From: Terriglobia bacterium | Lineage (GTDB): Bacteria > Acidobacteriota > Terriglobia > 20CM-2-55-15 | NCBI GenBank assembly: GCA_965218585.1 | Contig: CBDCLE010000023.1 | Span: 10,162 to 74,161 of the forward strand | Direction of reading: 5' to 3' | DNA: 64,000 nt | In this document: one piece after another, positions 18,545-51,621 of the stretch | Layout: each line of letters starts with the position of its first letter | How positions within the stretch are numbered: the stretch's first letter is position 1 | The notes under the pieces: model-generated | Told to the model about the DNA's origin: nothing | Database searches by the model: none | What the model saw: the letters and a program-made list of their open reading frames with translations, nothing else | Made by a program: the position numbers and the translations under genes

Positions 18545-18554
18545 TGGTCCATGG

Positions 18555-20018: not shown

Positions 20019-20048
20019 TACCTCTGCCTTCCGACCCTTCCCCCCAAC

Positions 20049-23724: not shown

Positions 23725-23808
23725 CGCTGCACTCCTCCAGTTACGTTTGTCCCGAGCCTGGCACTGGCTATCCGGGGACGAGACGGCTAACATATTTCTC
23801 CGAACACC

Positions 23809-26800: not shown

Positions 26801-27012
26801 GGCCCGATTTTCAGAACGTGAATCTGGCGCTTTCGAAAGAAGTGTCGCTAAACGAGGACGTCACTCTCGAGCTTCGCGCGGAAACGTTCAACCTCTTCAA
26901 TCGAACAAACTTCAACCTGCCGGATGCCTTCGTCGGCTCACCGACATTTGGTCAGATCGTATCGGCCCAGAGCCCGCGAAGGTGCCAGTTCGGCGTCAAG
27001 TTGATCTTCTGA
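23809..27012 (+). CDS. TonB-dependent receptor (Oar-like, N-terminal carboxypeptidase regulatory-like domain), several frameshifts at 24.7-25.5 kb
   Basis: [55 protein letters not shown]-terminal QFGVKLIF. Confidence 0.88.
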
Positions 27013-34669: not shown

Positions 34670-37303
34670 GTGAAAAGAACCATGACGACCAACTTCTATC
34701 GCATCTCGATCTCTCTGAGCATTTTGCTATTGCTCGGTGCGTCCAGCTTCGAAGCATTCGGCCAACAGAGGGTTCCAAGCCCAGAGGAATATCTAGGCTT
34801 CGAGGTCGGTGCAGACCGGAAGCTTGCCCGATGGGATCAGATCCTGGGTTATATCGGGCAGGTGGATGAGGCGTTTGACCGGGTGGGGATGGAGGTTGTC
34901 GGCGAAACGACCTCGGGCAATCCGTTCGTCGTCGTCGTGGTCTCCTCACCAGAGAACATGCGCCAGTTGGAGCGGTATGAAGACATCGCCGCGCAACTTG
35001 CCAGCGGAAGACTCGAAGCTGACGATGCACGGGACCTGGCCGCCAGCGGCAAGGTCATCGTCTTTCTCAACCATAATGTTCATTCCACGGAGATCGCGTC
35101 GTCCCAGACGACTTTGCGGCTTCTTCATTTCCTTTCTACGGACACGTCAGAAGAAGTCCGGGAGATCCTGGATAAAGTGATTCTGGTCCACCTCCCGTCC
35201 GGAAACCCGGACGGTCAGATCATGGCTGTCGACTGGTACAGGCAGAACGTGGGTACAGAGTACGAACAATCCCCGATGCCATGGCTCTACCATCCGTATA
35301 TCGGCCACGACAACAATCGAGACTTCTTCATGGGCAACGTCGTGGAGTCGGCTCTGATGATGCAGCTCGTTTACAAGGACTGGCATCCGCAGATCTACCT
35401 GGATCAGCACCAGATGGGGGCCTTTGGAGCTCGCATGTTCGTTCCGCCGTTTCCCGACCCGCCGAACGAGCACGTTGATCCCTTGATCTGGCAGCAGATC
35501 AAGTTTCTCGGTGGGGGAATTGCAACCGACCTTCAGGTGGCTGGAAAGCAGGGCGTCCTGACCAACGCCATGTACCGGATCTACCACCAGGGAGGCCCGT
35601 TATCGGTCTGGTGGCACAACATCGTCGGCCTGCTCACTGAAACCGCAAGCGCGTCCATGGCGACACCGCTGACGCTTGATCGGGAAGACCTCAGACCCAC
35701 ACGACCCGACCAGGGGCTTCCTGTCTACGAGACGGCCAAGAATTTTCCGGATCCGTGGTACGGGGGGGAATGGCATCTCAGTGACATTGTCGACCATCAG
35801 TTCATTGCTGCAATGTCCGTACTCAAACAGGCAGCGCGCTACAAGAGTGAGTTCCTGTTCAACAATTATCTGATGGCCCAGAGGGCAATAGAGGCGGCCG
35901 AGGTCGAAGGCCCGTTTGCCTACGTTGTTCCGGCCGGACAAAAGGACGGGCCCACGGCAGACGAAATGATCGAGAGATTGATGTTGCAGGGCATCGAAGT
36001 TCATCGGGCGGATAGCAACGTTCAGGTCGGGGGAGAAACGTATCTCGAAGGTTCTTTCTTCTTATTGGCGGCTCAACCGGCTCGGTCTGCCCTGGTCGAT
36101 CTTTTCGAAAGTCAGGACTATCCGGATGTCCGTCTGTATCCGGAAGGACCACCAATCTTGCCGTATGACGTCACCGGCTACACTCTTCCCATGCAGATGG
36201 GAGTCACGTATGCGGCGATCGAGGCCGGATTCGATGTTTCTAATCTGAGATTGATCAGCAGCGTCGAAAACGACACCGTGGCTCCGGTTCCGGCAGCCAC
36301 AGAGACTTTCGTCCTGAATCATGAGATCAACAAGACGGCCGTTCTGGTCAACCGGCTTCTCGCCAGGGACGTTCCGGTCTACCGCGTGCCTCAGGCAATA
36401 GATTTCAACGGTACGCCCATTTCCTCAGGTGCCTTCGCGGTTCCCGCATCAGCCCAGGTCCGAACTACACTCATGGATTTGAACGCCGATCTTTCGCTGC
36501 CGATCGGGGCCGATCCCAGCGACTTCGATGTCAACGATTCCGGATTGCCACTCAACGAGCCACGAGTAGGCCTTTACAGGTCGTGGGTCCCTTCGATCGA
36601 CGAGGGTTGGACCCGGTGGATTCTTGAAGAGTTCGATTTTGCTTACGTTGGATTGCAGAACGAGGCGGTCCGCAACGGAAATCTCAGGGATGACTATGAC
36701 GTGATTATCCTGCCGGCTCAACTCTCACTCCGGCAACTGGTGGAGGGCCGTCGGCCTGGAGAGATACCCGAACCTTACGTCGGCGGGATAGGCGAGGAAG
36801 GAATAGAAAACCTCAAACGATTCGTAGTGGACGGTGGAACCTTGATCGCCCTTGACTCGGGAGGTGAGGTTGTCCTGGAACATTTTGACGTTCCTCTGAC
36901 CGATGCGCTCGACGACGTATCGACAGATCAGTTCTATTGTCCCGGTTGTATCGTCCGGCTGGGGATCGACACGGACCACCCGATCGGGTTCGGCCTCGAA
37001 CCCGAAGTTGCCGCGAAGTTTGCCAACAGTCCTGGATACGTCGTTGATACCGAATCGAGCAATGACGTCCGCGTTCTGGCCAGCTACCCGTCAGACGGTC
37101 CGTTGTTGATGAGCGGCCTGATCATCGGGGAGGAAGTCCTGCAGGATAAAGCAGCGGTCGTTCAAATAGGATACGGCAGCGGATCAATCATCATGCTCGG
37201 CTTTCGGGTCCAGCACCGTGGCCAGACACACGGGACCTATAAGCTCCTTTTCAACTCCATATACGACGGCGGCAGCAGTAGCCTTGCTCTGGAGTCCGAT
37301 TGA
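34670..37303 (+). CDS. Secreted M14 zinc carboxypeptidase-like protein with C-terminal GATase-like domain
   Basis: HSTE, NPDG, DNNRD, DQHQM; DEGWTRW/YDVIILP. Confidence 0.85.
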   Translation: MKRTMTTNFYRISISLSILLLLGASSFEAFGQQRVPSPEEYLGFEVGADRKLARWDQILGYIGQVDEAFDRVGMEVVGETTSGNPFVVVVVSSPENMRQLERYEDIAAQLASGRLEADDARDLAASGKVIVFLNHNVHSTEIASSQTTLRLLHFLSTDTSEEVREILDKVILVHLPSGNPDGQIMAVDWYRQNVGTEYEQSPMPWLYHPYIGHDNNRDFFMGNVVESALMMQLVYKDWHPQIYLDQHQMGAFGARMFVPPFPDPPNEHVDPLIWQQIKFLGGGIATDLQVAGKQGVLTNAMYRIYHQGGPLSVWWHNIVGLLTETASASMATPLTLDREDLRPTRPDQGLPVYETAKNFPDPWYGGEWHLSDIVDHQFIAAMSVLKQAARYKSEFLFNNYLMAQRAIEAAEVEGPFAYVVPAGQKDGPTADEMIERLMLQGIEVHRADSNVQVGGETYLEGSFFLLAAQPARSALVDLFESQDYPDVRLYPEGPPILPYDVTGYTLPMQMGVTYAAIEAGFDVSNLRLISSVENDTVAPVPAATETFVLNHEINKTAVLVNRLLARDVPVYRVPQAIDFNGTPISSGAFAVPASAQVRTTLMDLNADLSLPIGADPSDFDVNDSGLPLNEPRVGLYRSWVPSIDEGWTRWILEEFDFAYVGLQNEAVRNGNLRDDYDVIILPAQLSLRQLVEGRRPGEIPEPYVGGIGEEGIENLKRFVVDGGTLIALDSGGEVVLEHFDVPLTDALDDVSTDQFYCPGCIVRLGIDTDHPIGFGLEPEVAAKFANSPGYVVDTESSNDVRVLASYPSDGPLLMSGLIIGEEVLQDKAAVVQIGYGSGSIIMLGFRVQHRGQTHGTYKLLFNSIYDGGSSSLALESD

Positions 37304-37458
37304 CAGGTCGCCGTTAGAAGAGCACGATACGCGACCGGTGTCAGCATTAACGATCAGAAACCACTCCCAGTGCCGGTCACCTGACGACCACAACTGCGGG
37401 TTCGATAACATCCCCGACGCCATCTCGGTGGTGCGAAGTTCGTTATACTATTTCGGCT

Positions 37459-38574
37459 ATGGAAGTTGCTGGTCCCACAAACAGGGAGGCCTCCCCAGCC
37501 CAGGTAGAAGCAGCTCGCAATGCGCTCGATGACTGGGTCCGTGAAGTCGTTGACTGGCACTTTGATCCGGCAACCGGGTCTCCATTCTGGCTTGAGCGCG
37601 CGAAGGAACTCGGCTGGGACCCCCGCCGGGAAATCCTGAGCTTCAGCGATCTCGGCCGCTTCGGGCCGTTCGAAGACGAGTGGTTGCGCGGCGGTCCCGT
37701 CGAGCGATGGGTACCCAGTGGTCTCGCGGATAAGGCCGTATTCGTATTCGAAACAGGCGGTACCACAGGCATTCCGAAGACACGCATCAACTGCGAAGAC
37801 TTCAGGACGGACTACGAGGTGTTCAGCGACACGCTTCCCGAAGAGTATTTCCCGAAGGGAGCAAACTGGCTCATGGTCGGACCTTCCGGTCCCCGTCGGC
37901 TGCGCCTGGCTGTAGAACACCTTGCCCAGTACCGCGGCGGCATCTGCTTCCTGGTGGATCTGGATCCCCGCTGGGTCATCAAGCTCATCAAGAAAGGATG
38001 GACCGAACACCTGGAGGCCTACAAGAACCACGTGATCGATCAGGCTGTAACGATCCTCCAGGCCAACCACGACATTCACTGCCTGTTTGCAACGCCGAAA
38101 CTACTTGAAGCCCTGGCCTTGCGCCTGGAATCGATGGACACGACGATTCACAAGGAAGGCATCACAGGTGTGTTCTCCGGAGGCACCGAGTTCACACCCC
38201 AGTGGAATCGTTTTGCGCACGAAGAATTGCTCGACGGAGCATACATGACCCCGACATACGGCAACACCTTGATGGGCCTTGCCCCAAGTGCTCCCAGCGG
38301 TCCAGCGAACGCCTACAAGATCTCTTACTACGCACCACAACCGCGCGGAGTCATTGAAGTCATCGATCCCGATGATCCGGACCGTGTCGTCGGATACGGC
38401 GAAACCGGCCGAATCAAGGTCACCACCCTGACAAAGGAATTCTTCATGCCGGGCTTCCTCGAACGCGATGAAGGTGAACGGGAACCGCCGTCGGATCTCT
38501 ACCCATGGGATGGAGTGAGCGGTGTGCGGCCTTTCGGTAAACTGCCTACGGCGACCACCGTAGGCGTGTACTAG
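37459..38574 (+). CDS. EhpF/GriC-like atypical adenylate-forming enzyme
   Basis: WHF..TGSPFWL, ETGGTTG.PK P-loop, DLDPRWV, GGTE, YGETG, ERD and C-terminal GVY all match the EhpF motifs as I recall them. Confidence 0.8.
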   Translation: MEVAGPTNREASPAQVEAARNALDDWVREVVDWHFDPATGSPFWLERAKELGWDPRREILSFSDLGRFGPFEDEWLRGGPVERWVPSGLADKAVFVFETGGTTGIPKTRINCEDFRTDYEVFSDTLPEEYFPKGANWLMVGPSGPRRLRLAVEHLAQYRGGICFLVDLDPRWVIKLIKKGWTEHLEAYKNHVIDQAVTILQANHDIHCLFATPKLLEALALRLESMDTTIHKEGITGVFSGGTEFTPQWNRFAHEELLDGAYMTPTYGNTLMGLAPSAPSGPANAYKISYYAPQPRGVIEVIDPDDPDRVVGYGETGRIKVTTLTKEFFMPGFLERDEGEREPPSDLYPWDGVSGVRPFGKLPTATTVGVY

Positions 38575-38582
38575 TTTATAAA

Positions 38583-40013
38583 ATGATTACCCTTCCCGTC
38601 CTGCGCTGGGGTCAACCCTACGACAGCCTCGATATAGACGAAGTCGTCCATTTCTCGACGGGTGAGCCGGTCGCAAGGATCGGGCGCGCCAACAGCGGAC
38701 TGATCCAGCGGGACATGCGCCGCGCCCAACGGGCCCGGGACGCCCTCAGGACCATCCCGGTCGGCGAACTGCTCGAAAGGTTCCAGCGTGCGGGCGAGAT
38801 TTACATGACCGGCACGGTTCCAATGGGTGACGGAGGGCAGACCCCTGAACAGTTTGTGACAGCCCAGTCGGCCAGCACCGGTCTGCCCGAAAACATGTGC
38901 CGGGCAAACATGGACAAGAACCGTTTCGTCCTGAACGAAATGGGAAACATCCTCGCTTCGTTGACACGGGGATTAGACCTGGAGATCCTGAACCGGGGTT
39001 TCGGCGAGGAGCATGAGGTCCCGATAAGCTATCAGGCTCAGAGTCCGGTCCTCGGCGTCGTACTGCCGTCTAATTCTCCCGGTGTACACACCCTGTGGCT
39101 GCCGATGCTCGCGTTGCAGATCGGCCTCGTCCTCAAGCCCGGACCGCAGGAACCCTGGACGCCATACCGAATGGCCAACGCTTTCTTCGAAGCGGGCATT
39201 CCAAGGGAAGCGATTTCAGTGTATCCGGGCGAAGCCGACGTCGGTGCGGCCGTACTCGCAGCCTGCCCCCGCAGCATGATCTTTGGTGATGAGACGACCG
39301 TGGACCGTTATCGGGGTGATCCGCGGGTCCAACCGCACGGACCGGGCTTCTCGAAGATTATCTTCGGTGACGACCAGGTGGACGATTGGGAAAAACACCT
39401 GGACCTGATGGTGGAAAGTGTTGCTGTCAACAGCGGACGTAGCTGTATCAATACCTCGGGGATATGGGTGAGTCGACACGCCGGAGAAATCGCCAATGCC
39501 CTGGCCAGAAGACTCGCCGAGATACAACCCCTTCCGCCCCAGGATCCGGAGGCCGGATTGGCGGCGTTCACGGTGCCCGGCGTAGCCGAAGCCATTTCGC
39601 AATCGATCGATGTCGATGTCCAGGCACCCGGGGTTCGGGACGTCTCTTCCGAGTATCGTGAAGGGAGTCGCGTCGTAGACGCCGGACTCGCCGACTATCT
39701 GCTGCCAACCGTGATCCACTCCGAGTCACCGGACACCAGCATTGCGAGAAAGGAATACATGTTCCCTTTTGTCAGCGTCGTCGAGTGTTCCGAAGCTGAC
39801 ATGATTCGGGCCATCGGACCCACGTTGGTTTGCAGCGCGATCACCTGTAACGAAGATTTCCGCAGACAACTCGTGGATGCGGTAAACATCGACCGGCTGA
39901 ACCTCGGCCCGGTGCCGACGACCAAGCTCAACTGGCTGCAACCCCACGAAGGGAACATCGTCGATTTCCTATTTCGCGCACGGGCATTCCAGAACGCGCC
40001 GTTCACGGGTTGA
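38583..40013 (+). CDS. EhpG/GriD-like ALDH-fold acyl-AMP reductase
   Basis: LPSNSPGVH, LKPG..EP, HGPGFSK, catalytic NSGRSCIN, EYMFPFV. Confidence 0.75.
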   Translation: MITLPVLRWGQPYDSLDIDEVVHFSTGEPVARIGRANSGLIQRDMRRAQRARDALRTIPVGELLERFQRAGEIYMTGTVPMGDGGQTPEQFVTAQSASTGLPENMCRANMDKNRFVLNEMGNILASLTRGLDLEILNRGFGEEHEVPISYQAQSPVLGVVLPSNSPGVHTLWLPMLALQIGLVLKPGPQEPWTPYRMANAFFEAGIPREAISVYPGEADVGAAVLAACPRSMIFGDETTVDRYRGDPRVQPHGPGFSKIIFGDDQVDDWEKHLDLMVESVAVNSGRSCINTSGIWVSRHAGEIANALARRLAEIQPLPPQDPEAGLAAFTVPGVAEAISQSIDVDVQAPGVRDVSSEYREGSRVVDAGLADYLLPTVIHSESPDTSIARKEYMFPFVSVVECSEADMIRAIGPTLVCSAITCNEDFRRQLVDAVNIDRLNLGPVPTTKLNWLQPHEGNIVDFLFRARAFQNAPFTG

Positions 40014-40036
40014 CGTGAGTCCTAATTTGCACGACG

Positions 40037-40115
40037 GAAGATTTCGCTCCCTCGTTCATTCAGACATCCTGTCTGAACGAGGGGCGACCCTCTCCATCAT
40101 CCTGATGGAGAGGCC
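40037..40115 (-). repeat. Two-hairpin intergenic element, copy E
   Basis: Minus strand: CCTCTCCATC-AGGAT-GATGGAGAGG GTCGCC CCTCGTTCAGAC-AGGAT-GTCTGAATGAACGAGG GAGCGAAATCTTC. Confidence 0.88.
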
Positions 40116-40155
40116 TATCGGGATCGAGGGAACATTAACTTAAGGCCTAGAGCCC

Positions 40156-41487
40156 ATGAAGGTCTTGTCGATCACAGCCGGCGCGGCGGGAATGTACTGC
40201 GGGAGTTGTGCCCGCGATAACGCTCTGGCGCGAGAACTCTTGTCCCTCGGGCACGACTGCACTCTCATACCCGTCTACACGCCCACACGGACAGACGAAC
40301 CGAACGCAAGCCGCAACCGAGTCCTGTTCGGCGGCATCAGCGTCTATCTTCAGCAGTATGCCCCTCTCTTCCGTAAGACCCCACGACTTCTGGACCGGAT
40401 GTGGGATTCGCCATGGGTGATCAACCGCTTCAGAGGACGTGCGGTGTCGAACGACCCGCAGTTATTGGGAGACCTCACGATCTCCATGCTCGAAGGCGAA
40501 CAGGGCGTCTTAAGTAAGGAATTCGACAAACTTGTGGATTGGATCAGCCACCAGCCCAGACCCGATATCATCAACCTGCCCAACTCGCTGTTGATCGCGC
40601 TCGCGGCACCGCTGAAAGAAACGTTCGATTTACCTGTGTGCTGCACCTTGCAGGGAGAAGAGCTCTTCATCGACGGATTGCTGGCGCCCTACCGCGACGA
40701 GGCTCTGCGGCTGATCCGAGGGCAGGTCTCCACTGTGGATCGTTTTATCGCCGTCAGCGAATACTGTCAGCGCTTCATGACAGAGTATCTCCAGATACCT
40801 CTCGAGCGTATTGGCGTTGTGCCTCTGGGTATCAACCTGACCGGTTATCCTGACAGCCCGGTCTCCACAGACGATGACGGCGAATTCCGTGTGGGATATT
40901 TCGCCCGCATTGCGCCGGAAAAAGGTCTGGACGCGTTGGCCGACGCCTATGTCCGGTTCCGCAAACGGAGCGGGAGTGCTTTGGTGCGATTGTGTGTCGC
41001 GGGCTACACGGCTCCGGCTCACGCTGATTACTTGAACCAGGTCCGCAACATGCTGACCGAAGCCGGTTATGGTGATGAGTTCTCCTATCAAGGCGTTGTG
41101 GACCGGGAGGGAAAGCTGCGGTTTCTCCAGGAACTCGATATCCTTTCGGTGCCGGCAACCTACGATGAACCGAAGGGCATGTTCCTGCTCGAAGCCATGG
41201 CGAATGGCGTTCCAGTCGTTCAACCCCGTCGCGGCGCCTTTACTGAGATCGTCGAAAAAACCGGCGGCGGCCTGTTGGTTGAACCCGACAGTGCGGAAAG
41301 TCTGGCTGAAGGCCTGTACCAGCTATGGAAGGATCGTCAACAGAGGTCCGAATTGGGAAAGTCCGGCCTGGAGGGCGTGCATGAACACTATTCGGTCCGA
41401 CACTCCGCGGACCGGTTGCTGGAAATTTACGATGATGTTCTGAACGCACGGTCTGAGGGAACTATCCCGGTCGGTGCCAGCGTTTGA
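40156..41487 (+). CDS. Glycosyltransferase family 4 with N-terminal CxxC
   Basis: RIAPEKG, EPKGMFLLEAMANGVPVV; N-terminal GMYCGSCARD. Confidence 0.88.
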   Translation: MKVLSITAGAAGMYCGSCARDNALARELLSLGHDCTLIPVYTPTRTDEPNASRNRVLFGGISVYLQQYAPLFRKTPRLLDRMWDSPWVINRFRGRAVSNDPQLLGDLTISMLEGEQGVLSKEFDKLVDWISHQPRPDIINLPNSLLIALAAPLKETFDLPVCCTLQGEELFIDGLLAPYRDEALRLIRGQVSTVDRFIAVSEYCQRFMTEYLQIPLERIGVVPLGINLTGYPDSPVSTDDDGEFRVGYFARIAPEKGLDALADAYVRFRKRSGSALVRLCVAGYTAPAHADYLNQVRNMLTEAGYGDEFSYQGVVDREGKLRFLQELDILSVPATYDEPKGMFLLEAMANGVPVVQPRRGAFTEIVEKTGGGLLVEPDSAESLAEGLYQLWKDRQQRSELGKSGLEGVHEHYSVRHSADRLLEIYDDVLNARSEGTIPVGASV

Positions 41488-42197
41488 GTGCAGAGGACTC
41501 ATTGCTCGAAGTCTCACATCTCAGCAAGGAATACCCGACGCCCCGAGGACCACTCGAAGTCCTGTCGGACGTCAACCTGTCGCTCGCTCCGGGGGAGGCT
41601 GCGGCGATCATGGGTCCGTCCGGCAGCGGGAAGAGCTCGCTGCTTTACGTCCTGGGAGGTCTGGAGCCACCATCGTCTGGAAGCGTAAAGCTCGAGGGAA
41701 ACGACCTGTTTGGAATGAAGCCTTCCCAGCAGGCCAGGTTCCGGAACACGCAGATCGGCTTCATCTTCCAGGATCACTGTCTGCTCCCCCAATGTTCGGT
41801 CCTGGAAAACGTGCTCCTGCCAACGCTGGTAAGGCATGGGAACGACATAAACGAAGATAGGGAACGGAAGAATTTCGCCGAAGACGCGCGCTTGCTCGTC
41901 GAACAGGTGGGACTTGGCGATCGTATCGACCACCGGCCGGCGGAGTTATCGGGAGGGGAAAGACAGCGAGTGGCCATCGCCCGCGCATTGATTCGCAGCC
42001 CCCGTCTCATTCTGTGCGATGAACCCACCGGGAACCTGGACGAAACGACTGCGGACACCGTCGCATCGCTTTTGCTGGAACTCCATCGTGTTCAGAAAAA
42101 CATCCTGATCGCCGTCACACACAGCGCACATCTCGCGGCACGGTTTCCGATTCGTTTTGAGCTTGCACAGCGGCGACTCGGTCGGGTTGAATCATAG
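41484..42197 (+). CDS. ABC transporter ATPase (LolD/MacB-like)
   Basis: [34 protein letters not shown]. Confidence 0.93.
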
Positions 42198-42212
42198 ATG
42201 ACGAGTTAAACA

Positions 42213-45200
42213 ATGGCTGATGGCATAAAACAACGTCGTCTCATCTTCGAGGGTTTGGCGTTTTATTGGCGCACAAACATCGCCGTGATCGCCGGCGTTG
42301 CAACCGCGGTCGCCGTTCTTGCGGGAGCCTTGCTGGTGGGCGACTCCGTACGCGGCAGTCTCCGCGACATGGTCCTCGAGCGAATCGGAAACACAGACCA
42401 TATCGTCGTGTCGACGACTTTCTTTCGAGAGGCCCTGGCCCGGGATCTGGGCAATCATCCCGACTTCCCTGCCAGTTTCAACGGTGTGGCTCCGATCATT
42501 GTCACCGAGGGACTCGTGACCACTCCAACGGGCGAGGGGCGAATGGACCGGGTTCGTGTGTACGGTATCGACGACCGGTTCTGGCGGTTCCACGGTGTGG
42601 AGGAGTTCACCGGTCCCGGAGGCCGTCAGGCATTAGTCAGCCCTGCCCTGGCCGAGGGACTCGGTGTTGAGGCAGGAGCCACCATTCTTGTCCGCGTCGA
42701 ACGACCCTCTGAGATCCCACTGGAGTCCCTCCACGGAAACAAGGCCGACCTGGGCCGTACGATTCGCGCCACACTCGGAAGTGTTGTCCCTGGCGAAACG
42801 CTCGGCGAATTCTCTCTCGAAGCGGGCCAGGGGGAGGTTCACGCAGTCTTTCTTCCTCTGGAGCTTGTCACCGAGGACCTCGAAATAGAAGAACGCGTCA
42901 ACGCGTTGCTCGTTTCGACCACTTTGGCAGATGCCGATGCCGCAACGGCGGAATTGGAAAGGATGGTTCGGAGCGAAGCCGAATTGGAAGATCTGGGTCT
43001 CGGTCTGAGACTCTTGGGACAACCCCAGGCGCTCGCAATTGAAGGCTCTGGCGGTTTGATCGACGATCAAAAGGTTGATATCGCACTGGAGGCCGGGGCA
43101 GCCATGGGCCTGGAAGCACGCCCAATTTTCACCTATCTGGTCAACAGGCTCGGCAACGCTTCAACTGAAATCCCTTATTCGCTTGTAACCGCAACCGACC
43201 TCACCCGCTTAGTCGGAGAAGAACTGTCTTCTGTGTCAGGTCTGCCGCCAATCGTCCTCACTGACTGGGCCGCCGAGGATCTCAGCGTTTCAAGCGGAGA
43301 TCGTCTCTCGATGGAATACTACGTCTGGGTGGAACCTGGTCAACTGGTCACTCGGGAAACCGACTTCGAAGTCGTGAACGTAGTTCCCATCGACGCCGGA
43401 GATCGCGACATGGCTCCGACCTACCCGGGCATTACGGATTCGGAAGCTCTGGCTGACTGGAATCCGCCGTTTCCGATCGATCTCGCACGTATCCGCCCTG
43501 TCGACGAAGAGTTCTGGAATCTTTATCGGACGACACCCAAGGCGTTTATCCCGCTCGAAGTCGGCCGCGAGCTCTGGCAGTCCCGTTACGGATCCATTTC
43601 GTCTATTCGTCTGGCTCCGGAAACGGAGACAGAAGAACTAGCGGGGGAGACTCTTGTCGCCAATTACGCCGAACGTCTTGGAACACTTCTCGACCCGCTC
43701 GGTTTTGGCCTGGCCGTTCGGTCGGTGCGTTCCGAAGGTCTCGAGGCCTCGCGCGGCGCGACGAACTTTGGCGAGTACTTTGTGTACTTCAGTTTCTTCC
43801 TGGTTGTCTCGGCCCTGATGTTGGCGGCGTTGTTCTTCAAGTTGAGTGTCGAGCAACGTGGCCGTGAGATTGGGTTGCTGCGGTCGGTTGGCTTTACTCC
43901 GCCAATGGTCCGACGCCTATTTCTCATTGAAGGATTGATCCTGTCTTCAATCGGTGCCCTCATCGGTGTGTGGGGCGGGATCGGGTACGCCTCGCTCCTG
44001 GTCACCGGCCTCGGCACATGGTGGGTCGATGCCGTTGGAACCACCGCTGTAACGCTTCATGTTTCGGGCTTATCTCTGGCAGCAGGCGTAGTGGGTGGAA
44101 TCGCAGCGGCCATGGCATGCATCTGGGTAACTCTCCGAAGCCTGTCATCGGTGTCCGAACGCCGGTTGCTGGCGGGGCAGCTTTCCCAGGAGAACGCTGG
44201 ACAGAGGGGTCGAACTCGGCCAGCCCGGCTGGGGGCGGTGTCGCTGGGCAGCCTCGGCATCGCACTCATCGTCGGAGCGGGAATGGGTTTCGTCGATCAG
44301 GCGGCTGGCTTTTTTGGAGCGGGAATGGCGTTTCTGGCAGCCAGTCTTTGTTTTCTCGCACTTCGATTCGGCCGTCGGCGCGAAGCGGTGCTCGGAGGCC
44401 AGGGCTGGTGGCCGGTCTCGCGGCTGGGTCTCCGGAACGCGACCTATCGTCCCGCTCGAAGCGTCACTGCAATCGGAATGATCGCGGCGGCAACTTTCAT
44501 TTTGATATCGGTCGATGCCTTCAGAAGGGACACGGTATCGAACGCGGGTCCCGAGTCCGGACTGGGGGGTTACCCCTTGCTCGTCGAGTCCCTTCTGCCT
44601 ATGTTGGAAGATCCAACCAGCCCTGCAGGCCAGGAATTTCTGGGGTTGGGAAGCATCGACTCCGCAGCTGTATCTCCGTTCCGACTCAGACCGGGTGACG
44701 ACGCCAGTTGCCTGAACCTGTACGCCCCCACAAATCCGAGGATCGCGGCACCCAGCGACGCGTTCATCGAACAGGGACGTTTTGCGTTTCAGGATTCGCT
44801 TGCGTCGAATGATGCAGAACGTGCCAACCCGTGGCTCCTCCTCCAACGGGATGGACCCGACGGAACAATTCCCGTGATCGGCGATGCAAACTCGATGACC
44901 TATGTCCTGCACCGGAAGCTGGGCGAGGAGATCCTCATAACCGAAGGAGACCGCACAATTCGGCTGCGGCTCGTTGCGACTCTGGACGACAGTATTTTCC
45001 AGGGCGAGCTCCTGATGTCTGAAACTCATTTCCTGGAACAGTTTCCTTCACAGGAAGGATATCGACTCCTGCTTGTGGAGACAGAAGCAGGAAGCGTGGC
45101 CCAGGCCGAAGAATCGATCGAAAACGCCCTGGCGGACTATGGAGCGACGGCGACGCCGACTGCCGAGCGTCTCGCCCAGTTCCACCAGGTCGAGAACACC

Positions 45201-45578
45201 TACCTGTCGACGTTTCAGATGCTGGGTGGACTGGGCCTGCTGCTTGGAACCGTCGGCCTGGGCGCGGTCCTGTTGCGAAACGTTCTGGAACGACGGCGGG
45301 AACTGGCACTGATGCGTGCGCTCGGTTACCTCGAACGAGACTTTCTCGCGATGTCGATGGCAGAGAACGTGATGTTGCTGACCGTGGGACTGGTGACCGG
45401 CGCGGCATGCGCCTTCCTGGCTACGCTTCCGGTTATCCTGGATCGTGGCGGGCAACTTCCCGGTATGCTTGTCTTCGGACTATTGGGTGGCGTTCTGGCG
45501 GTTGGACTGGTCACCTCCCTGGGGGCGACGATTGCCGTCCTCCAGTCACCTCTGTTGCCGGCTCTAAGAGAGGAGTGA
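42213..45578 (+). CDS. Large FtsX/LolE-type ABC permease (duplicated architecture)
   Basis: Two blocks (EQRGREIGLLRSVG, ERRRELALMRALG), multiple TM helices and large periplasmic loops. Confidence 0.9.
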   Translation: MADGIKQRRLIFEGLAFYWRTNIAVIAGVATAVAVLAGALLVGDSVRGSLRDMVLERIGNTDHIVVSTTFFREALARDLGNHPDFPASFNGVAPIIVTEGLVTTPTGEGRMDRVRVYGIDDRFWRFHGVEEFTGPGGRQALVSPALAEGLGVEAGATILVRVERPSEIPLESLHGNKADLGRTIRATLGSVVPGETLGEFSLEAGQGEVHAVFLPLELVTEDLEIEERVNALLVSTTLADADAATAELERMVRSEAELEDLGLGLRLLGQPQALAIEGSGGLIDDQKVDIALEAGAAMGLEARPIFTYLVNRLGNASTEIPYSLVTATDLTRLVGEELSSVSGLPPIVLTDWAAEDLSVSSGDRLSMEYYVWVEPGQLVTRETDFEVVNVVPIDAGDRDMAPTYPGITDSEALADWNPPFPIDLARIRPVDEEFWNLYRTTPKAFIPLEVGRELWQSRYGSISSIRLAPETETEELAGETLVANYAERLGTLLDPLGFGLAVRSVRSEGLEASRGATNFGEYFVYFSFFLVVSALMLAALFFKLSVEQRGREIGLLRSVGFTPPMVRRLFLIEGLILSSIGALIGVWGGIGYASLLVTGLGTWWVDAVGTTAVTLHVSGLSLAAGVVGGIAAAMACIWVTLRSLSSVSERRLLAGQLSQENAGQRGRTRPARLGAVSLGSLGIALIVGAGMGFVDQAAGFFGAGMAFLAASLCFLALRFGRRREAVLGGQGWWPVSRLGLRNATYRPARSVTAIGMIAAATFILISVDAFRRDTVSNAGPESGLGGYPLLVESLLPMLEDPTSPAGQEFLGLGSIDSAAVSPFRLRPGDDASCLNLYAPTNPRIAAPSDAFIEQGRFAFQDSLASNDAERANPWLLLQRDGPDGTIPVIGDANSMTYVLHRKLGEEILITEGDRTIRLRLVATLDDSIFQGELLMSETHFLEQFPSQEGYRLLLVETEAGSVAQAEESIENALADYGATATPTAERLAQFHQVENTYLSTFQMLGGLGLLLGTVGLGAVLLRNVLERRRELALMRALGYLERDFLAMSMAENVMLLTVGLVTGAACAFLATLPVILDRGGQLPGMLVFGLLGGVLAVGLVTSLGATIAVLQSPLLPALREE

Positions 45579-46621
45579 CTCGAAGCTTGACATGACAAGA
45601 ATCAAACGCACAACGAAGTGGATTTTCGTTCTCCTTTCAGGAATGACGCTGGTGGGTGGAGCCCTGTCGGTCACGACGACGTCCCAGGAGTTGGGAATCC
45701 CCTCCAGCGGACTCGGCGAAAGTTTGGGCGTTCGAATGGTTCCCGTCGAGGGCGAGGGTGCACAGTATTGGTCCCGTTGGCGGGGACCGTCGGGTCAAGG
45801 ACAGGTGGAAGGGAGCGGCTATCCCGATACCTGGTCCGCGACCGAAAACGTCCTCTGGAAGACGCCCGTTCCCGGAAGCAGAAATTCGTCTCCCATCGTG
45901 TGGGATGACCTCATTTTCCTGACGACGTCCTACGACCGGGGGGACCGACTGTCCCTTCTGGCGTACCGGCGCTCTGATGGCGAGTTGCTCTGGGAGAGCT
46001 TCGCCCCGGACGGGGTATCGGAACGGCCCCATCAGAAGAACGGCCATGCCTCCGCGACGCCGACGACCGATGGCGAACGCGTCTACGTCTCGTTTGGTGC
46101 CCGCGGGATGGCGGCATTTAGTTTGGACGGTGAACTGCTCTGGAATCAGGATGTGGGGCGGATCAACAACTATCACGGCACGGCCGGTTCACCTCTGGTT
46201 TATAAGGACCGCATCATCATCTTTCAGGATCACTCCGCAGGTTCGTTCGTGGCTGCTTTCGATACGCGAACAGGCCAGGAGTTGTGGCGAACACCCCGCC
46301 AGGCGAGTGTTGGCTGGGGCTCACCGATCGCGGTTCAGGTGGACGACCACGACGAGATCATCGTCCACAGCCAGAGACGGGTGAATGCATACGATCCCGA
46401 CACTGGAAGAGAGTTGTGGTACTGCAACGGAAACACCTTCGAGGTGATTCCCACACCTGTCGTCGGCTACGGAATGCTGTTCTGCTCCTCGGGCCGCGCG
46501 GGTCCGACGATGGCTATAAAGCCCGGTGGTACGGGCAACGTCACCGACAGCCACCTGGTGTGGTCGAGTCCCAGAGGATCTCCATTCGTTCCGTCTCCGA
46601 TTCTCTATGGCGACCAACTCT

Positions 46622-48477
46622 TGTCCAACGTCAATCAGAATTCCTTCTCGCATTGACTCATTGAAAATGTTACCGAACTGAGGGTTGTTGCCTCATTAGA
46701 AATGTTACCCAACTCTATGAGAACGGAGGTGGGAAGTGAGGACACACATGACTGTTGCGGCAAGGCGAGAATTAGCTCTACGAACGGCGGTTCGCTACAA
46801 GAATGCGGCGCGACCGGAGAAGAAGCGAATCCTGGATGAGTTCCTTGAATCGACCGGGTTCCATCGGAAGCACGCGACACGGCTTCTGAACGACATTCTG
46901 AGGGGCGAACGGCCCCGACGGCAACCGCGCGGCCGGGTCCGTCGATACGGCCCCGCGGTGCAGGCCGCCCTGATCGCGGCCTGGCGCACAGTCAATGATG
47001 TCTGTGGCAAACGGCTCGTTCCGTTTCTGCCGGAGCTGATCCCGACCATGGAGCGTCACGGGCATCTGTTATTGTCTGATAAAACGCGGGCGGATCTGCT
47101 TGAGCTGAGCGCCGCCACGGCTGATCGGATCTTCCGTCAATTCCGATTCGATCATCGACCGCACGGCAAGACCACCACCAAGTCCGGACAGTTACTCAAA
47201 CACCGCGTTCCGATTCGCACATTCGCCGACTGGGCGGACACGCGGCCGGGATTCATGGAAGCGGACTTGGTTGCACACTGCGGCGGGAACTCGGAAGGCC
47301 CTTTCCTCCACACCCTGGTACTGACCGACGTGGCGACCGGCTGGACCGAATGTCTGGCGTTGCTACGGCGTACGGAGGCGGACATTCTGCAGGCGCTCAC
47401 GACGGCACGGCAGATCCTTCCGTTTCAGCTTGTCGGCCTGGACACGGATAACGGTTCCGAGTTCATGAACTACGGACTCCTCGCCTACTGCGAGCGTGAA
47501 ACGATTCAATTCACCCGAGGCCGGGCGCGCCGGAAGAACGACCAGTGCTTCGTCGAACAGAAGAACGGCTCGATCGTCCGCCAATTGGTCGGCTACGACC
47601 GCTACGAAGGCTCACTGGCATACAGGCAGCTTGCCGAGCTCTACCGAGTGGTCCGGCTCTACGTGAACTTCTTCCAGCCGTCCATGAAGCTCACGACGAA
47701 GACTCGCGATGGATCCCGGGTGACGAAACGCTACGATATCGCGCAAACACCCTATCAACGGCTCTCGAATTCGGATGCGCTCGACCCGGAGGTTCGCGTT
47801 CGCCTTGCTGCGATTTATGAACGTTCGGATCCGGTCGATCTCCTACGACAGCTTGAGAAACTCCAGGATGCATTCTGGAGACATGCGAAGGAACTGGCCT
47901 CTCCCACGCTAACGGACGACATCGTGCGCGCCGCCCTTGTGTCCCCGAACTGCGACGCAGATGCAGACCGAGCCCCGATTGAGGCGGAACTCCCCGATCC
48001 CGGCTTCGAGCAACGAATCACGCGTCGGTATCGCAAAACACGGAAACAACCTGTGCCCCACATCTGGCGTACTCGCCCGGACCCGTTCGACGGCGTCTGG
48101 GAGGAGATGCGGTCATGGCTTGAATCCGATCCCGGGCGAACATCAAAGTCGCTGTTGCTTGAGCTTCAGCAGCGGCGCCCGGGACGTTACCCCAACGGTC
48201 AGTTACGGACCCTGCAGCGGCGCGTGCGCGAATGGCGGCGTCAGATTCTGGAGACTTTCGATGGCGAGTGGCTCGAACTGGATCGGGTCCGCCCGGCTTC
48301 AGCATCTGCGGGCGACGGGGGCTGTGGAAAAGGCGGTCGCCCCACAGCCTCGACGGCGGGAAGAACTCTCCCGTTTGACCGGTCGTTCGGTAACATTTTC
48401 GATGAGGCAACAACCCTCAGTTCGGTAACATTTTTAAATGAGGCAATACGGCCGGGAGTTTTGATTGTCGCTGATCA
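46622..48477 (+). mobile_element. 1856-bp insertion sequence with TG...CA ends, ~90-bp imperfect TIRs and a 6-bp TSD (AACTCT/AGCTCT)
   Basis: The left end aligns with the reverse complement of the right end. Each end carries two TTGMCTCAT(N)AAATGTTACC-like boxes. Confidence 0.92.
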
Positions 48478-48577
48478 AGCTCTACATCGTCAACGACATG
48501 GCGAGCATCGCGACGTCCTTCGATGCCAGAACCGGAGACAGTCTGTGGCAGGGACGGCTGGGAGTTGTAAGGCGTGA
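46736..48577 (+). CDS. DDE (rve/integrase-core) transposase, ISNCY-like; the ORF runs past the right end
   Basis: N-terminal ILDEF..TGFHRKHA.RLL; DDE residues in EADLVAHCG, DTDNGSEF, VEQKN; C-terminal WRTRPDPF...LRTLQRRV. Confidence 0.88.
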   Translation: MRTHMTVAARRELALRTAVRYKNAARPEKKRILDEFLESTGFHRKHATRLLNDILRGERPRRQPRGRVRRYGPAVQAALIAAWRTVNDVCGKRLVPFLPELIPTMERHGHLLLSDKTRADLLELSAATADRIFRQFRFDHRPHGKTTTKSGQLLKHRVPIRTFADWADTRPGFMEADLVAHCGGNSEGPFLHTLVLTDVATGWTECLALLRRTEADILQALTTARQILPFQLVGLDTDNGSEFMNYGLLAYCERETIQFTRGRARRKNDQCFVEQKNGSIVRQLVGYDRYEGSLAYRQLAELYRVVRLYVNFFQPSMKLTTKTRDGSRVTKRYDIAQTPYQRLSNSDALDPEVRVRLAAIYERSDPVDLLRQLEKLQDAFWRHAKELASPTLTDDIVRAALVSPNCDADADRAPIEAELPDPGFEQRITRRYRKTRKQPVPHIWRTRPDPFDGVWEEMRSWLESDPGRTSKSLLLELQQRRPGRYPNGQLRTLQRRVREWRRQILETFDGEWLELDRVRPASASAGDGGCGKGGRPTASTAGRTLPFDRSFGNIFDEATTLSSVTFLNEAIRPGVLIVADQALHRQRHGEHRDVLRCQNRRQSVAGTAGSCKA

Positions 48578-48865
48578 GGGTTTTTCCGCATCACCAGTTG
48601 CCGTGGATGGCAAAGTCTTCTTCACCAACGACAACGGTGAAACCTTTGTACTCCGGGCCGGCAGAGAATTCGAGCTGTTGCATGTGAACGATATCGGGGA
48701 ACGCACGCTGGCTTCACTGGCGCTCGTCGATGGCCGATGGTATATCCGGACCGGACAGAATCTGATTTCGATCGGCGAGTGAGGTAATCGATCCGCTGGT
48801 TTAATGTTTGTCATAGCAGTTTGACAAGCGTAAACTTTGTGAGTTGAGTTGAGGGAGGACAGTCA

Positions 48866-49495
48866 GTGGTTCAGTCAGAGTCAGTTGTTCCAACCGCACA
48901 AGGGGAGGCGACCCGGAGCCGGATACTCGATGCAGCAGCGCAGGCCTTTTCAGAACGCGGTTTCAGCGGTGCCACTTTGCGTGATATCGGAGCGGCTGCG
49001 GGTGTTCCATTTCAGTCGATCCGTCACCACTTTGGGTCCAAGGAAGATCTCTAGGAAGCGGTCGTTGAGGAATTGAGCCGACACAGCCAGGAAGGCGCAC
49101 TCCGTAATGAGGAGGTCATCGCATCACTTCCGCCCCGTGAACAACTCCGTGCGCAGATCTTCGCGCTTGTTGCCCGTGTAGCGGAACACCCCCAACTGTC
49201 CCGGATGCTCTTGCGCGAGGCGATGAAGGACAGTGACCGCTATCGAAAGGCCTACGAATTGCATGTCCGCGACCTTACAGTATTAGCGGGCAGGTTCTTC
49301 GGGCGCATGCAAGAGGCCGGTGTCGTCAAGGAAATTCCCATTGAGGATTTCCTGTTCGTCTGGGAGGGTGCCCTACTCCACCGTTTGGTGGCTCCCGCTG
49401 CCAACCAGCTTCGCACCGGAAAACCCATCACGGACCGCGGTGTCATCGAACGCCATGCAAATGCGGTGACACAGTTACTCCTGAAGGACGGGTAA
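48866..49495 (+). pseudogene. TetR family regulator with in-frame TAG at 49052-49054
   Basis: TRSRILDAA..F.E.GF...TLRDI..AAGV..SIRHHFGSKEDL*EAVVEEL; the two ORFs share one frame. Confidence 0.8.
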
Positions 49496-49515: not shown

Positions 49516-49917
49516 GTGAAACATCTGACACACGGCGTCGCCGTCCTGGTCTCTCTGATGTTCGTGTTCATCGGCAGTGTGAAACTCTTCGGGGTACCCC
49601 AGTCGATGTTCGAATTCCAGCTCGAAAACTACTTCAATGCGTACGGCCTGACCCGAGGGCATATGTTTGCCGTAGGGCTGGCCGAACTGTTTGGAGCCGT
49701 CGCGATCTGGTGGCACCGCACACGGTGGATCGGGCTTGCGGGACCCGCCGTTCTTGTCGTCGTGACCCTCGGGGCCACTTATTACCATCTCCAGTTCGAC
49801 ACGGTTCGAGAAGCACGCCCCGCGATAATGATGCTGACCTTGTCTTCGTTCGTTCTGTTGATGTCGTGGTATCTCCACTTTCGCCCTTCAAATGTGTTGG
49901 AGAGAAGCCCGGAGTAA
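49516..49917 (+). CDS. DoxX-like membrane protein
   Basis: Four hydrophobic segments; FIGSVKL, VGLAELFGAV, GATYYH. Confidence 0.75.
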   Translation: MKHLTHGVAVLVSLMFVFIGSVKLFGVPQSMFEFQLENYFNAYGLTRGHMFAVGLAELFGAVAIWWHRTRWIGLAGPAVLVVVTLGATYYHLQFDTVREARPAIMMLTLSSFVLLMSWYLHFRPSNVLERSPE

Positions 49918-50072
49918 GGCCAGCCGGGCAATCCGCCACCTCGAACGGGCGTTTTTCCCCCCAATACCCCTCCCCTATTGTTAGACTCACCGGAATCTCA
50001 ACCTCTACTGTAGGTGCGCTCTATGAGCGCACAGTCAAAAGGACGAAGAGAAGTTCAACAGAAGGAGGCCGC

Positions 50073-51621
50073 ATGCATATCCGGCATCTCTATTTCGCGA
50101 TTCTAGTCGTTGTCGTTGCGCTCGGTAGCGCATGCAGTTCTCCGCCTCTTATCATCGAAGGGTTGACGTTGGACCCAAGACCGAGTGAGTCGGTTCCCCT
50201 GGCCGCACAGGTGACCTTTGAAACAAACCGGCCGACAACGGTGGCACTGCTGTTCGACGATGGTGATCGAACCTGGACCTCCGACTTGGGGCTCTCAAGC
50301 CAGACACGCCATGTCGTTCCGGTCCTGGGCATGCGTCCGGGTCGGACACATCAAGTTCGTGTGGTCGTTACCGATCAGGACGGACTCACGGCAACGTCCG
50401 AACTGCTGGCGATCACGACCGATCCTCTCCCCGAACTCTTTCCTCCGATAGACGTTCGCATCAGCGAGCCGGAACGAATGGAGCCGGGTGTGACTGTTTT
50501 CAGCCTTTCCTACAGGCCCGAAGGGGGAGGCGGTGGAAACGTGGGCCTCGCCGTCGCGGTGGACGAGGCCGGAGAAGTAGTCTGGTACTACACCACCGAC
50601 CATGGCGTTCGGGATATCCGGCAGCTCGACAACGGCCATATCCAGTATCTCTCCCGAAATCCCGGTGAGCCCTTATACGAAATCGAGTTTTCACCACGAA
50701 GCCTTCCGGACAGCAACGGGAAACATCCTGACCTCCAGTGCGGATCTGAGAACCTATGACAACTACCCGACCAGCGATTCGGACCCCAATGCACCTCGAG
50801 GTGCCGCCGAATTGATCGGGGACACTCTGATCGAATTCACTCCCGAGGGAGAAATCGTTCGTGAAGTGAAACTACTGGACCTGGTCGATCCCTACCGTTT
50901 TGGATATGGATCGATCGGAGGGGGAGCAGCCCTGGGAAACGTCTTCGGTCCTCGGGGTGAGAATCCCCGTCACGACTGGGCCCATCTCAACGCCGTCATT
51001 CCAGACGACACCGGACGCTACGCGATTGCATCCCTCAGGCACCAGGACGCTGTAGTGAAGGTCGACATGGAGACAGGTGAACTGGTTTGGATTCTGGGCA
51101 ACCACGACGGATGGGGACCCCGATGGCAGGATCTTCTATTAGAGCCCCAGGGCGACCTCCTCTGGAACTACCATCAGCATGCGTCCACGATCACGCCAAG
51201 CGGAACACTCCTCATGTTCGACAACGGCAATTTCCGCGCGTCACCGTACGAGGAACCGATGACGCCGGCAGAGTCCTTCAGCCGAGCGGTTGAATACCGC
51301 ATCGACGAAGAGAGCATGCAGGTGACGGAAGTGTGGTCCTCTGGAGATGATGGAGACGAACGCTTCTTCGCTAACTTCCAGGGTGACGCCGACTGGATGC
51401 CACAGACGGGCAACGTTCTTATTACGTATGGAGGACTGGTCTCAGACGCTGACGGGATCTCTGTGGAAGGCCAAGCCGGTCACAGTTGGGCTCGAATCGC
51501 GGAGGTGACCCATGATACTCCTGCGGAAAAAGTGTTCGAGTTTTTCATAGACGATCAGCGCCCTGAAGGCTGGTCTGTTTATCGCGCTGAACGACTTCCC
51601 AGCCTCTATCCCTCAAGATAG
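50073..51621 (+). pseudogene. Arylsulfotransferase lipoprotein paralogue with an internal deletion and frameshift at ~50686
   Basis: GGAGG RBS and lipobox LGSAC. Highly similar to 1-1410 but lacks about 30 codons between LYEI and HHE. Confidence 0.8.

Follow-up and report, generated by a model that had tools for sequence, protein, structure and literature searches.

Single-chain carboxylic acid reductases built from adenylation, peptidyl carrier and reductase domains (A-PCP-R, e.g., Nocardia Car) turn an acid into the corresponding aldehyde at the expense of ATP and NAD(P)H. A few gene clusters for aromatic antibiotics and pigments encode the known two-component carboxylate reductases, namely EhpF/EhpG and GriC/GriD. 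The first pair, encoded in the ehp cluster for D-alanylgriseoluteic acid of Pantoea agglomerans, was reportedly proposed by Bera et al. in 2010 to turn phenazine-1,6-dicarboxylate (PDC) into a 6-formyl compound. The pathway passages of PMC3175449 place EhpF-O downstream of PDC. For the grixazone cluster of Streptomyces griseus, an excerpt of PMC10179220, citing Suzuki et al. 2007, describes how GriC makes the acyl-AMP of 3-amino-4-hydroxybenzoate (3,4-AHBA), which GriD then reduces to the aldehyde. In this work, we describe a 64,000-nucleotide stretch of contig CBDCLE010000023.1 from a Terriglobia bacterium (hereafter the window), which carries on its forward strand a set of six genes (g1 to g6) opening with a pair of this same kind, here as a distinct and strongly conserved clade fixed beside envelope genes in abundant, mostly uncultured soil bacteria. 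We give about an even chance to the reading that this set couples an EhpF/EhpG-type, ATP- and NAD(P)H-dependent carboxylate reductase to glycosylation and to an envelope machine formed by an ATP-binding cassette (ABC) system of type VII and a beta-propeller.

The set starts with g1 (37459-38574, 371 aa), a predicted EhpF-type truncated ANL adenylating enzyme without the C-terminal ANL subdomain, and g2 (38583-40013, 476 aa), its EhpG-type reductase partner with an aldehyde dehydrogenase (ALDH) fold. Downstream of them come g3 (40156-41487, 443 aa), a GT4 glycosyltransferase, g4 (41484-42197, 237 aa), a LolD/YbbA-like ABC ATPase whose reading frame overlaps the g3 stop by 4 nt, g5 (42213-45578, 1121 aa), a duplicated FtsX permease of the type VII ABC kind, and g6, a secreted PQQ_2 (BamB-like) beta-propeller found in two parts, N-terminal (45592-46620) and C-terminal (48477-48782). 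The intergenic gaps from g1 to g6, taken from the list of open reading frames (ORFs), are in order 8, 142, -4, 15 and 13 nt. An earlier note on this DNA, made from the sequence alone, had described six co-oriented, closely spaced genes. All six were placed correctly and five are intact, but the sixth, the propeller gene, is split by an insertion sequence; the position where the note ended its span, 48782, does coincide with the end of the propeller gene, but a seventh, foreign ORF within that span went unmentioned.

By sequence and by predicted fold, g1 is a true EhpF homologue. A phmmer search aligned residues 18-359 of its 371 with residues 15-353 of the 366 of EhpF in the PDB (3l2k, 3hgu; E 2e-40), all other PDB matches having E >= 0.1, and the Pfam AMP-binding model reached 20.9 bits, under its cut-off. 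An AlphaFold2 model of g1, built from a 43-sequence alignment (predicted local distance difference test, pLDDT, 91.9; predicted TM-score, pTM, 0.89), retrieved EhpF chains as its five top Foldseek matches (E 1e-30 to 1e-28, TM-score 0.79-0.85), followed by PaaK-family ligases at E ~1e-16, several of which act on phenylacetate, salicylate or 3,4-AHBA. Targets of the latter sort are longer than g1 (396-437 aa for the PaaK type, up to 537 aa for other ANL enzymes), and their target-normalised TM-scores fall to 0.33-0.61. Both g1 and EhpF end alike, with the C-terminal ANL subdomain absent and no AMP-binding_C match, and therefore thioesterification to CoA or to a carrier would not be possible for g1. 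Moreover, in the 43 sequences the residues G100, G101, G104 and P106 of a glycine-rich loop are near-invariant, as are Y267 and N269 on either side of an invariant G268; we take these residues to belong to the nucleotide-binding T-G-G-T-T-G-x-P-K loop and to the Y-G-N-T motif. Altogether, g1 shows several traits of the EhpF type: likeness over the full length in both sequence and fold, a truncated C-terminus, and a conserved glycine-rich loop and Y-G-N-T motif.

The second protein, g2, matches Pfam Aldedh with 66 bits. Its alignment with EhpG of Pantoea agglomerans, a sequence taken from a plasmid of this bacterium that was reached with g1 as the query, shows 25% identity over 430 columns (E 6e-32), and the ALDH partner of a haloarchaeal pair is matched at E 3e-39. 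The model obtained for g2 was poor (pLDDT 63.9), and its matches to generic ALDHs at a TM-score of ~0.57 were given no weight. A close-up view of the aligned active-site residues shows that Cys288 is invariant, both in 24 of 24 close relatives and in all nine aligned sequences, Escherichia coli AldA included. The Glu found in the L-E-L-G-G-K motif of AldA, which we take to be the water-activating general base of hydrolytic ALDHs, corresponds in g2 to His252, a residue shared by the four aligned sequences of the window clade and by 24 of 24 relatives; in four other EhpG-type proteins this column holds Q, Y, R or L. A C-terminal P-H-E/D-G motif, missing in AldA, occurs in seven of eight EhpG-type proteins, the haloarchaeal one having H-E-T. 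Since the water-activating Glu is gone, the acyl-enzyme would not be simply hydrolysed, and the residue pattern of g2 fits a shuttling of the acyl group between Cys and aldehyde rather than thioester hydrolysis. The protein thus looks like an EhpG/GriD-type partner, with the Cys kept, the general-base Glu lost and the gene adjoining that of an adenylating enzyme.

That g1 and g2 form a pair of the EhpF/EhpG (GriC/GriD) kind is therefore well supported by sequence and modelling, and the assignment made in the earlier note is borne out by sequence, by fold in the case of g1 and by the ALDH active-site pattern in that of g2. A grouping with the LuxE/LuxC fatty-acid reductases, which that note had named beforehand as the result that would speak against its assignment, did not appear, as the Pfam models LuxE (PF04443) and LuxC (PF05893) match neither g1 nor g2 even at E <= 10. 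The LuxE/LuxC system does resemble the pair in its logic, an ATP-dependent activation of the acyl group followed by a reductase of the ALDH superfamily, and EhpG itself gives a sub-threshold match to LuxC (19.6 bits). The differences from the Nocardia Car type are of another sort: g1 and g2 are two separate proteins lacking a carrier domain, a phosphopantetheine arm and a reductase domain of the short-chain dehydrogenase/reductase (SDR) type, and an ALDH-fold Cys is the predicted acyl acceptor.

The comparison with the ehp pair goes further. In both cases the two genes are adjacent and in the same order; g1 aligns with EhpF over its full length, shares its fold (TM-score ~0.8) and misses the same C-terminal subdomain, and g2 resembles EhpG over its full length, keeping the Cys and the C-terminal PH(E/D)G motif and lacking the Glu as EhpG does. 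Identity, however, is only ~30% for g1 and 25% for g2, and g1 belongs to a separate, well-supported clade. The partners also differ: beside the pair, the window encodes a propeller, a GT4 enzyme and a type VII ABC system, and the ehp cluster a methyltransferase, an exporter of the major facilitator superfamily and others. The ehp cluster is plasmid-borne, whereas the window operon is conserved across many species. Unlike the ehp cluster, no phz/ehp core genes lie near g1-g2, and unlike the grixazone cluster there are no equivalents of griH/griI, among the 43 of the 49 window ORFs of at least 110 aa that were scanned with Pfam (the six left out being each under 145 aa). The core genes looked for in these 43 ORFs were those of PhzA/B, PhzD, PhzE, PhzF, PhzG, GriH and GriI, and none of them was found either among neighbour ORFs sampled from 23 of 80 related loci; the statement in the earlier note that the window lacks phz and 3,4-AHBA synthase genes thus holds for the ORFs scanned. 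The likeness to GriC/GriD, a two-protein logic of AMP-binding and ALDH-like enzymes, is drawn from their function as described in the excerpt cited above, not from their sequences.

A tree of 68 full-length members placed the g1 of the window in a clade of 28 rows with very short branches (ultrafast bootstrap 98; Shimodaira-Hasegawa-like approximate likelihood ratio test, SH-aLRT, 99). Outside this clade we find the 'arylcarboxylate reductase' proteins of Streptomyces, a haloarchaeal protein, and EhpF, which goes with a protein from a Burkholderia phenazine cluster. Relatives of g1 occur in 29 plasmid records, at 30-39% identity, and the seven plasmid loci that were opened comprise three chorismate-derived aromatic clusters, three cases ahead of a type I polyketide synthase (PKS) gene, and a haloarchaeal one, where the pair adjoins a sodium:solute symporter and an SDR gene. 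The Streptomyces plasmid 'arylcarboxylate reductase' proteins are 31.5-36% identical to g1, and the three of them in the tree form a clade of their own; in the three such loci that were opened, a type I PKS gene comes next and there is no annotated ALDH gene. Adjacent genes of the g1-g2 type were also seen in records of Pantoea, Burkholderia, Streptomyces ADI95-16 and Halalkalicoccus.

Beyond this genome, more than 8000 protein clusters match g1 and likewise more than 8000 match g2, the best 120 of them at 77-95% identity to g1 and 73-95% to g2. Clustered at 50%, the g1 family is small: the threshold E <= 1e-3 leaves 1509 representatives and E <= 1e-30 leaves 295, fragments being numerous among them. 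In a species-level genome collection, at least 537 of 560 candidate stretches encode a g1 relative, and with such numbers the word orphan, by which the earlier note had characterized the pair, is misleading. Our operon comparisons use the best 80 of these at least 537 stretches, that is, the closest g1 relatives (71-84% identity), nearly all of which are Acidobacteriota metagenome-assembled genomes (MAGs), mostly labelled as Vicinamibacterales or Vicinamibacteria, although three members of Planctomycetota, two Pirellulales MAGs and Kolteria novifilia Pan216, are also among them.

Gene order in the 80 loci was obtained by tblastn of the window proteins, while greedy ORF calls and single-linkage clusters of neighbour genes served as pointers only. 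Where 1.5 kb or more of sequence lies downstream of g1, which is the case in 75 loci, g2 was found in 73. The loci in which g2 was detected number 75 in all, and in 71 of them the gap between both genes does not exceed 400 nt. For 62 loci the sequence extends 8 kb or more downstream of g1; g2, g3, g4 and g5 are all present in 50 of them, g2, g3 and g4 only in five, and just g2 in seven. In four loci (L032, L042, L051 and L057) the order is g3-g1-g2-g4-g5, with tens of bases between neighbours and g4 starting 5-31 nt past the g2 match. A PQQ_2 propeller follows g5 directly in 20 of 33 loci by Pfam and in six more by tblastn, the remaining seven having none directly adjacent. On the other hand, the flanks are not conserved: the commonest upstream neighbour, a GH77 glucanotransferase gene, precedes g1 in 13 of the 80 loci, and the M14 peptidase gene of the window had no tblastn match in any of them. 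With the same set in 50 of 62 related loci, the gene arrangement is not due to chance, and the order proposed from the window alone is conserved elsewhere, even the four rearranged loci being contiguous. The operon is lineage-wide in Vicinamibacteria-type Acidobacteriota and not a strain-specific orphan cluster, and a rearranged yet contiguous order between unconserved flanks argues for selection on the cluster. Median identities to the window proteins are 77.6% for g1, 72.0% for g2, 63.1% for g3, 62.9% for g4 and 51.6% for g5, so that the adenylating enzyme is better conserved than the ABC ATPase.

Regarding the genes that accompany the pair, g3 is matched by the Pfam models Glycos_transf_1 (86 bits) and Glyco_transf_4 (54.5 bits) and by no NCBIfam model at its cut-off. 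Its nearest solved full-length relatives, a sucrose-phosphate-synthase-like enzyme (6kih), GlgM (6tvp) and an MshA-like enzyme (3c48), use small soluble acceptors, and they do not discriminate among the possible acceptors of g3. In GT4 enzymes a Gly-rich loop is usual at the place where g3 has an N-terminal loop M-Y-C-G-S-C-x-R-D-N (residues 13-22), which is invariant in 50 of 50 orthologues and whose CxxC might serve in redox chemistry or bind a metal.

The ATPase g4 (ABC_tran, 124.9 bits) shows 47% identity to YbbA of E. coli, and its best NCBIfam models, both sub-threshold, are LolD (TIGR02211, 237 bits with a cut-off of 307.75) and YbbA (PRK10584, 199 bits). The permease g5 has two FtsX stretches in Pfam, ~10 transmembrane (TM) segments by hydropathy, and two predicted periplasmic domains at about residues 42-522 (~480 aa) and 770-1002 (~230 aa). 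Its PDB matches, to YtrF, LolF and FtsX, are weak, and the resemblance of residues 42-522 to MacB periplasmic-core clusters (score 0.95) is a lead only. Taken together, an FtsX permease with large periplasmic domains and a LolD/MacB-type ATPase are what is found in type VII systems (MacB/FtsX/LolCDE). We also considered the acidobacterial duplicated orphan permeases (ADOP, TIGR03434), but g5 scored 41.9 bits against a cut-off of 622.3 and, given the ATPase gene immediately upstream, it is not an 'orphan' permease. A defence system was likewise discarded, since all that PADLOC gave was a weak match of g5, in its FtsX region, to a LolE-type transmembrane model and, for g4, matches to generic ATPase domains.

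Type VII ABC systems are presented, in the abstract of PMC12646458, as mechanotransmission machines that pull molecules out of the membrane or do their work on the periplasmic side, and YbbAP-TesA as one that extracts hydrophobic molecules for a periplasmic partner. Like YbbP, g5 is a single chain with two FtsX modules and ~10 TM segments, and in both systems a secreted protein is encoded beside the transporter, g6 in one and TesA in the other. Unlike YbbP, g5 is 317 aa longer, and the neighbour is here a PQQ_2 propeller instead of an SGNH hydrolase. In E. coli K-12 (L088, 518340-522830), ybbA-ybbP adjoin tesA and ybbO, the latter annotated as an NADP-dependent aldehyde reductase, which adds a second example of aldehyde metabolism and a type VII ABC system being encoded side by side.

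The propeller protein g6 (PQQ_2, 80 bits) carries at its N-terminus a signal or anchor (residues 11-29 are hydrophobic) and has no lipobox Cys. BamB was rejected as its identity, with 42.8 against 285.2 bits for TIGR03300 and no Cys after the N-terminal hydrophobic segment. Orthologues in related loci measure 415-470 aa, and tblastn of two of them on the window outlines the broken gene: residues 1-371 of the L073 orthologue map to 45532-46620 (72% identity) and its residues 370-470 to 48477-48779 (88%), where residues 340-438 of the L076 orthologue map as well (80%). The N-terminal part is read as a 354-aa ORF ending at 46656, inside the inserted element, whereas the last ~100 residues of the propeller lie in a 105-aa ORF (48465-48782). 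Between both parts sits an insertion sequence (46621-48476, forward strand), which is not a member of the operon and whose rve-domain transposase ORF (46736-48577, 613 aa; rve 27.8 bits, weak IS481 and IS21 matches) reads past the right-hand one of two 53-nt terminal inverted repeats (46661-46713 and 48385-48437, 91% complementary). The core of these repeats is found nowhere else in the window. By its sequence, this ~1.85-kb insertion inactivates the propeller gene in this genome. Short similar sequences that flank the element, GACCAACTCTT and GATCAAGCTCT, may be an imperfect target duplication.

From these pieces we can outline how the system might work. By homology, g1 would adenylate a carboxylic acid with ATP; by homology and by the active-site pattern, Cys288 of g2 would take the acyl group from the acyl-AMP, NAD(P)H would reduce the thioester, and the aldehyde would be released. 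Judging from the conserved operon structure, this aldehyde, or the alcohol produced from it by a host reductase, might then enter a pathway that includes the GT4 enzyme, and the product or its membrane carrier might be handled on the periplasmic side by the g4 ATPase and the g5 permease. By analogy with YbbAP-TesA, the secreted PQQ_2 propeller would be the likely periplasmic partner of g5. As for the substrate, a small acid, aromatic or heteroaromatic, is favoured both by family precedent and by the proteins nearest to g1 in structure.

If this coupling is true, the operon would point to a glycoconjugate or membrane component of Acidobacteria as yet unrecognised, and to the beta-propeller as a new kind of partner for type VII ABC systems. 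A more ambitious version, which we regard as doubtful, is that of a class-wide envelope pathway of the Vicinamibacteria type, where the cytoplasmic reductase acts on a common cellular acid to provide a building block, either aldehyde or alcohol, the CxxC-bearing GT4 enzyme carries out the glycosylation, a new type VII ABC/propeller machine follows, and g1-g2 are mobile between phyla. The new machine would in that case install or remodel the product in the envelope, with the propeller as partner in the way that TesA is for YbbAP, and a universal substrate would lie behind the conservation of g1 (median 78% in the 80 genomes, 72-74% even in Planctomycetota). Were the coupling not true, thousands of proteins called 'PaaK-like', 'hypothetical' or 'aldehyde dehydrogenase' could still be re-read as an EhpF/EhpG-type pair. 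The g1-g2 pair is also a candidate carrier-free carboxylate reductase for biocatalysis.

Several observations weigh against a carboxylate reductase coupled to glycosylation and to the envelope machine. The function of the window clade is a prediction from homology and active-site pattern, and, as this is a distinct clade with 30-39% identity to its annotated relatives, its substrate class may differ from theirs; the aromatic substrate assumed in the earlier note is a matter of precedent from those relatives, from which the clade stands apart. All 80 loci were picked as the closest g1 relatives, and therefore the conserved order may partly reflect shared descent. The pair stands alone, with no GT4 or ABC genes within 10 kb, in seven of the 62 loci, including Kolteria novifilia and a Pirellulales MAG, and no common partner gene appeared among the neighbours of these seven loci. 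In five of the 62 loci there is no FtsX match: four of them (L020, L021, L031 and L061) have a gene of ~820 aa with a Spermine_synth domain after the ATPase (g1-g2-g3-g4) in place of the permease, in L061 with a nitronate monooxygenase-like gene in between, and the fifth (L017) ends within g4. Unrelated genes lie between g1 and g2 in four loci (2.6-5.3 kb; tannase, DNA methyltransferase) and between g2 and g3 in several. The structured 142-nt spacer implies that g1-g2 and g3-g6 could be expressed, and work, separately. On the envelope side, g5 has no BLASTP similarity to E. coli YbbP, propellers have no known link to type VII ABC systems, and the disruption of the propeller gene makes it dispensable at least in this strain.

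The alternative that survives best, although we still consider it rather unlikely, is that of two independent modules that happen to be neighbours, g1-g2 being a carboxylate reductase that, for instance, assimilates or detoxifies environmental aromatic acids, and g3-g6 an unrelated envelope system. The seven loci with g1-g2 and no g3-g5, together with the planctomycete cases, the foreign genes between g2 and g3 in some loci and the hairpin-rich spacer would all agree with such a division, as would the haloarchaeal pair, whose symporter and SDR neighbours recall a context of uptake or catabolism. Nevertheless, the five genes are kept together in 50 of the 62 loci despite their differing flanks, and in the order g3-g1-g2-g4-g5 the pair is embedded within the other module, tens of bases away from its neighbours, which would hardly be expected unless co-expression were selected for.

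An improbable alternative is a lipid pathway, in which g1-g2 would reduce a fatty or other lipophilic acid to the aldehyde or alcohol, the GT4 enzyme would make a glycolipid from this and the FtsX-type ABC system would move it in the envelope. The logic is that of heterocyst-glycolipid synthesis and DevBCA export, and there is a match between g4 and the DevA family (TIGR02982, E 2e-47) as well as a weak one between g5 and DevC (E 4e-4); the operon, however, has no DevB-type membrane-fusion protein by Pfam or NCBIfam. The handling of lipoproteins and hydrophobic molecules by type VII ABC systems, as described in the same abstract of PMC12646458, and the vicinity of ybbA-ybbP to tesA and ybbO in E. 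coli would suit a lipophilic product, but the lack of LuxE and LuxC matches in both proteins, the predominance, among the fold neighbours of g1 after EhpF, of PaaK-type ligases, several of which use small aryl acids, and the presence of three of the seven opened plasmid relatives in chorismate-derived aromatic clusters point away from it.

The model of the earlier note itself, in which a (hetero)aromatic acid would, after reduction and glycosylation, be exported to the periplasm to serve the many PQQ-like propellers as cofactor or ligand, is very improbable, because, despite the aromatic precedent within the family, the recurrence of PQQ_2 genes beside the system (even in a Pirellulales g1-g2 locus without ABC genes) and the at least six PQQ_2 genes of the window, we found no support for a cofactor, these propellers are so abundant in such genomes that adjacency is weak evidence, the operon's own propeller is broken here, and export fits poorly with FtsX/MacB-type systems, which are not known, from what that abstract describes, to carry cytoplasmic solutes across the membrane.

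The spacer between g2 and g3 contains two adjacent strong hairpins (40044-40113, forward strand) with no U-run after them, and its minimum free energy of -56.1 kcal/mol (z = -3.7) was not equalled by any of 200 shuffles. Related g2-g3 spacers were unusually structured in 16 of 26 cases (z < -2 against 30 mononucleotide shuffles), those of loci L003, L011, L015, L020, L021, L031, L046, L048, L049, L050, L056, L065, L068, L070, L073 and L076, and the spacer of L011 reaches -185 kcal/mol over 295 nt. These hairpins may be palindromes like the repetitive extragenic palindromic (REP) ones, or processing or stabilising elements. A scan for promoters and terminators in 36800-49200 stayed at chance level (5 promoter-like signals with 3.2 expected, 13 terminator-like with 11.8), and Rfam gave no match in the whole window at gathering scores and none in 37150-40300 at E <= 1, so there is no riboswitch to reveal a ligand. 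No literature on this operon was found in a search whose coverage stopped short of most subscription journals.

Additional clues come from the distribution and the fusions of the pair. The planctomycete g1 proteins (Kolteria novifilia Pan216, L067, and the Pirellulales MAGs L045 and L079) are 72-74% identical to the acidobacterial one and nested among acidobacterial sequences in the tree, at low resolution, while their g2 proteins are more diverged (59-66%); these sequences suggest that the g1-g2 cassette moved between phyla. In one Pirellulales locus, which lacks the ABC genes, the genes after g1-g2 encode an iron-dependent alcohol dehydrogenase (Fe-ADH), a propeller of the PQQ type and a HemN-like radical SAM protein. 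Acidobacterial-type g1-g2 genes (73-81% identity) were also present in three loci labelled as 'uncultured Bifidobacteriaceae' (L010, L060 and L062, the last with the whole operon), labels that are probably wrong. A search aimed at longer g1 relatives gave 22 proteins. Their best-populated kind is a class-III aminotransferase fused to an EhpF-like domain (eight clusters, six of them with a Streptomyces name from NCBI), and one protein is a fusion of a zinc-dependent alcohol dehydrogenase with an EhpF-like domain; both kinds fit an aldehyde product that is later aminated or reduced. Single-member fusions of g1-like and ALDH proteins (seven, one of them a 1258-aa protein that adds Fe-ADH) and of a propeller with a g1-like protein (two) may be artefacts of assembly or gene calling, and a 956-aa 'fusion' ORF of L080 proved spurious, as it lies in a third reading frame and has no Pfam match.

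Finally, the rest of the window offers some minor observations. Five further PQQ_2 genes lie on the reverse strand (2926-4173, 17840-18574, 18555-20057, 20158-22380 and 22480-23793), four of them in a row. The first one adjoins two radical SAM genes (4217-5491 and 5504-6655), one of which has a CofH/MqnC-type C-terminal region. An OMP_b-brl_4 outer-membrane beta-barrel gene is distributed over three ORFs (23809-24768, 24765-25190 and 25417-27012), an arylsulfotransferase over two overlapping ones (49710-50759 and 50602-51621), and a 230-aa ORF (29645-30337) holds only a partial gamma-glutamyltranspeptidase domain. The split genes, together with the insertion sequence in g6, suggest either that genes are decaying in this stretch or that its sequence contains frameshift errors.

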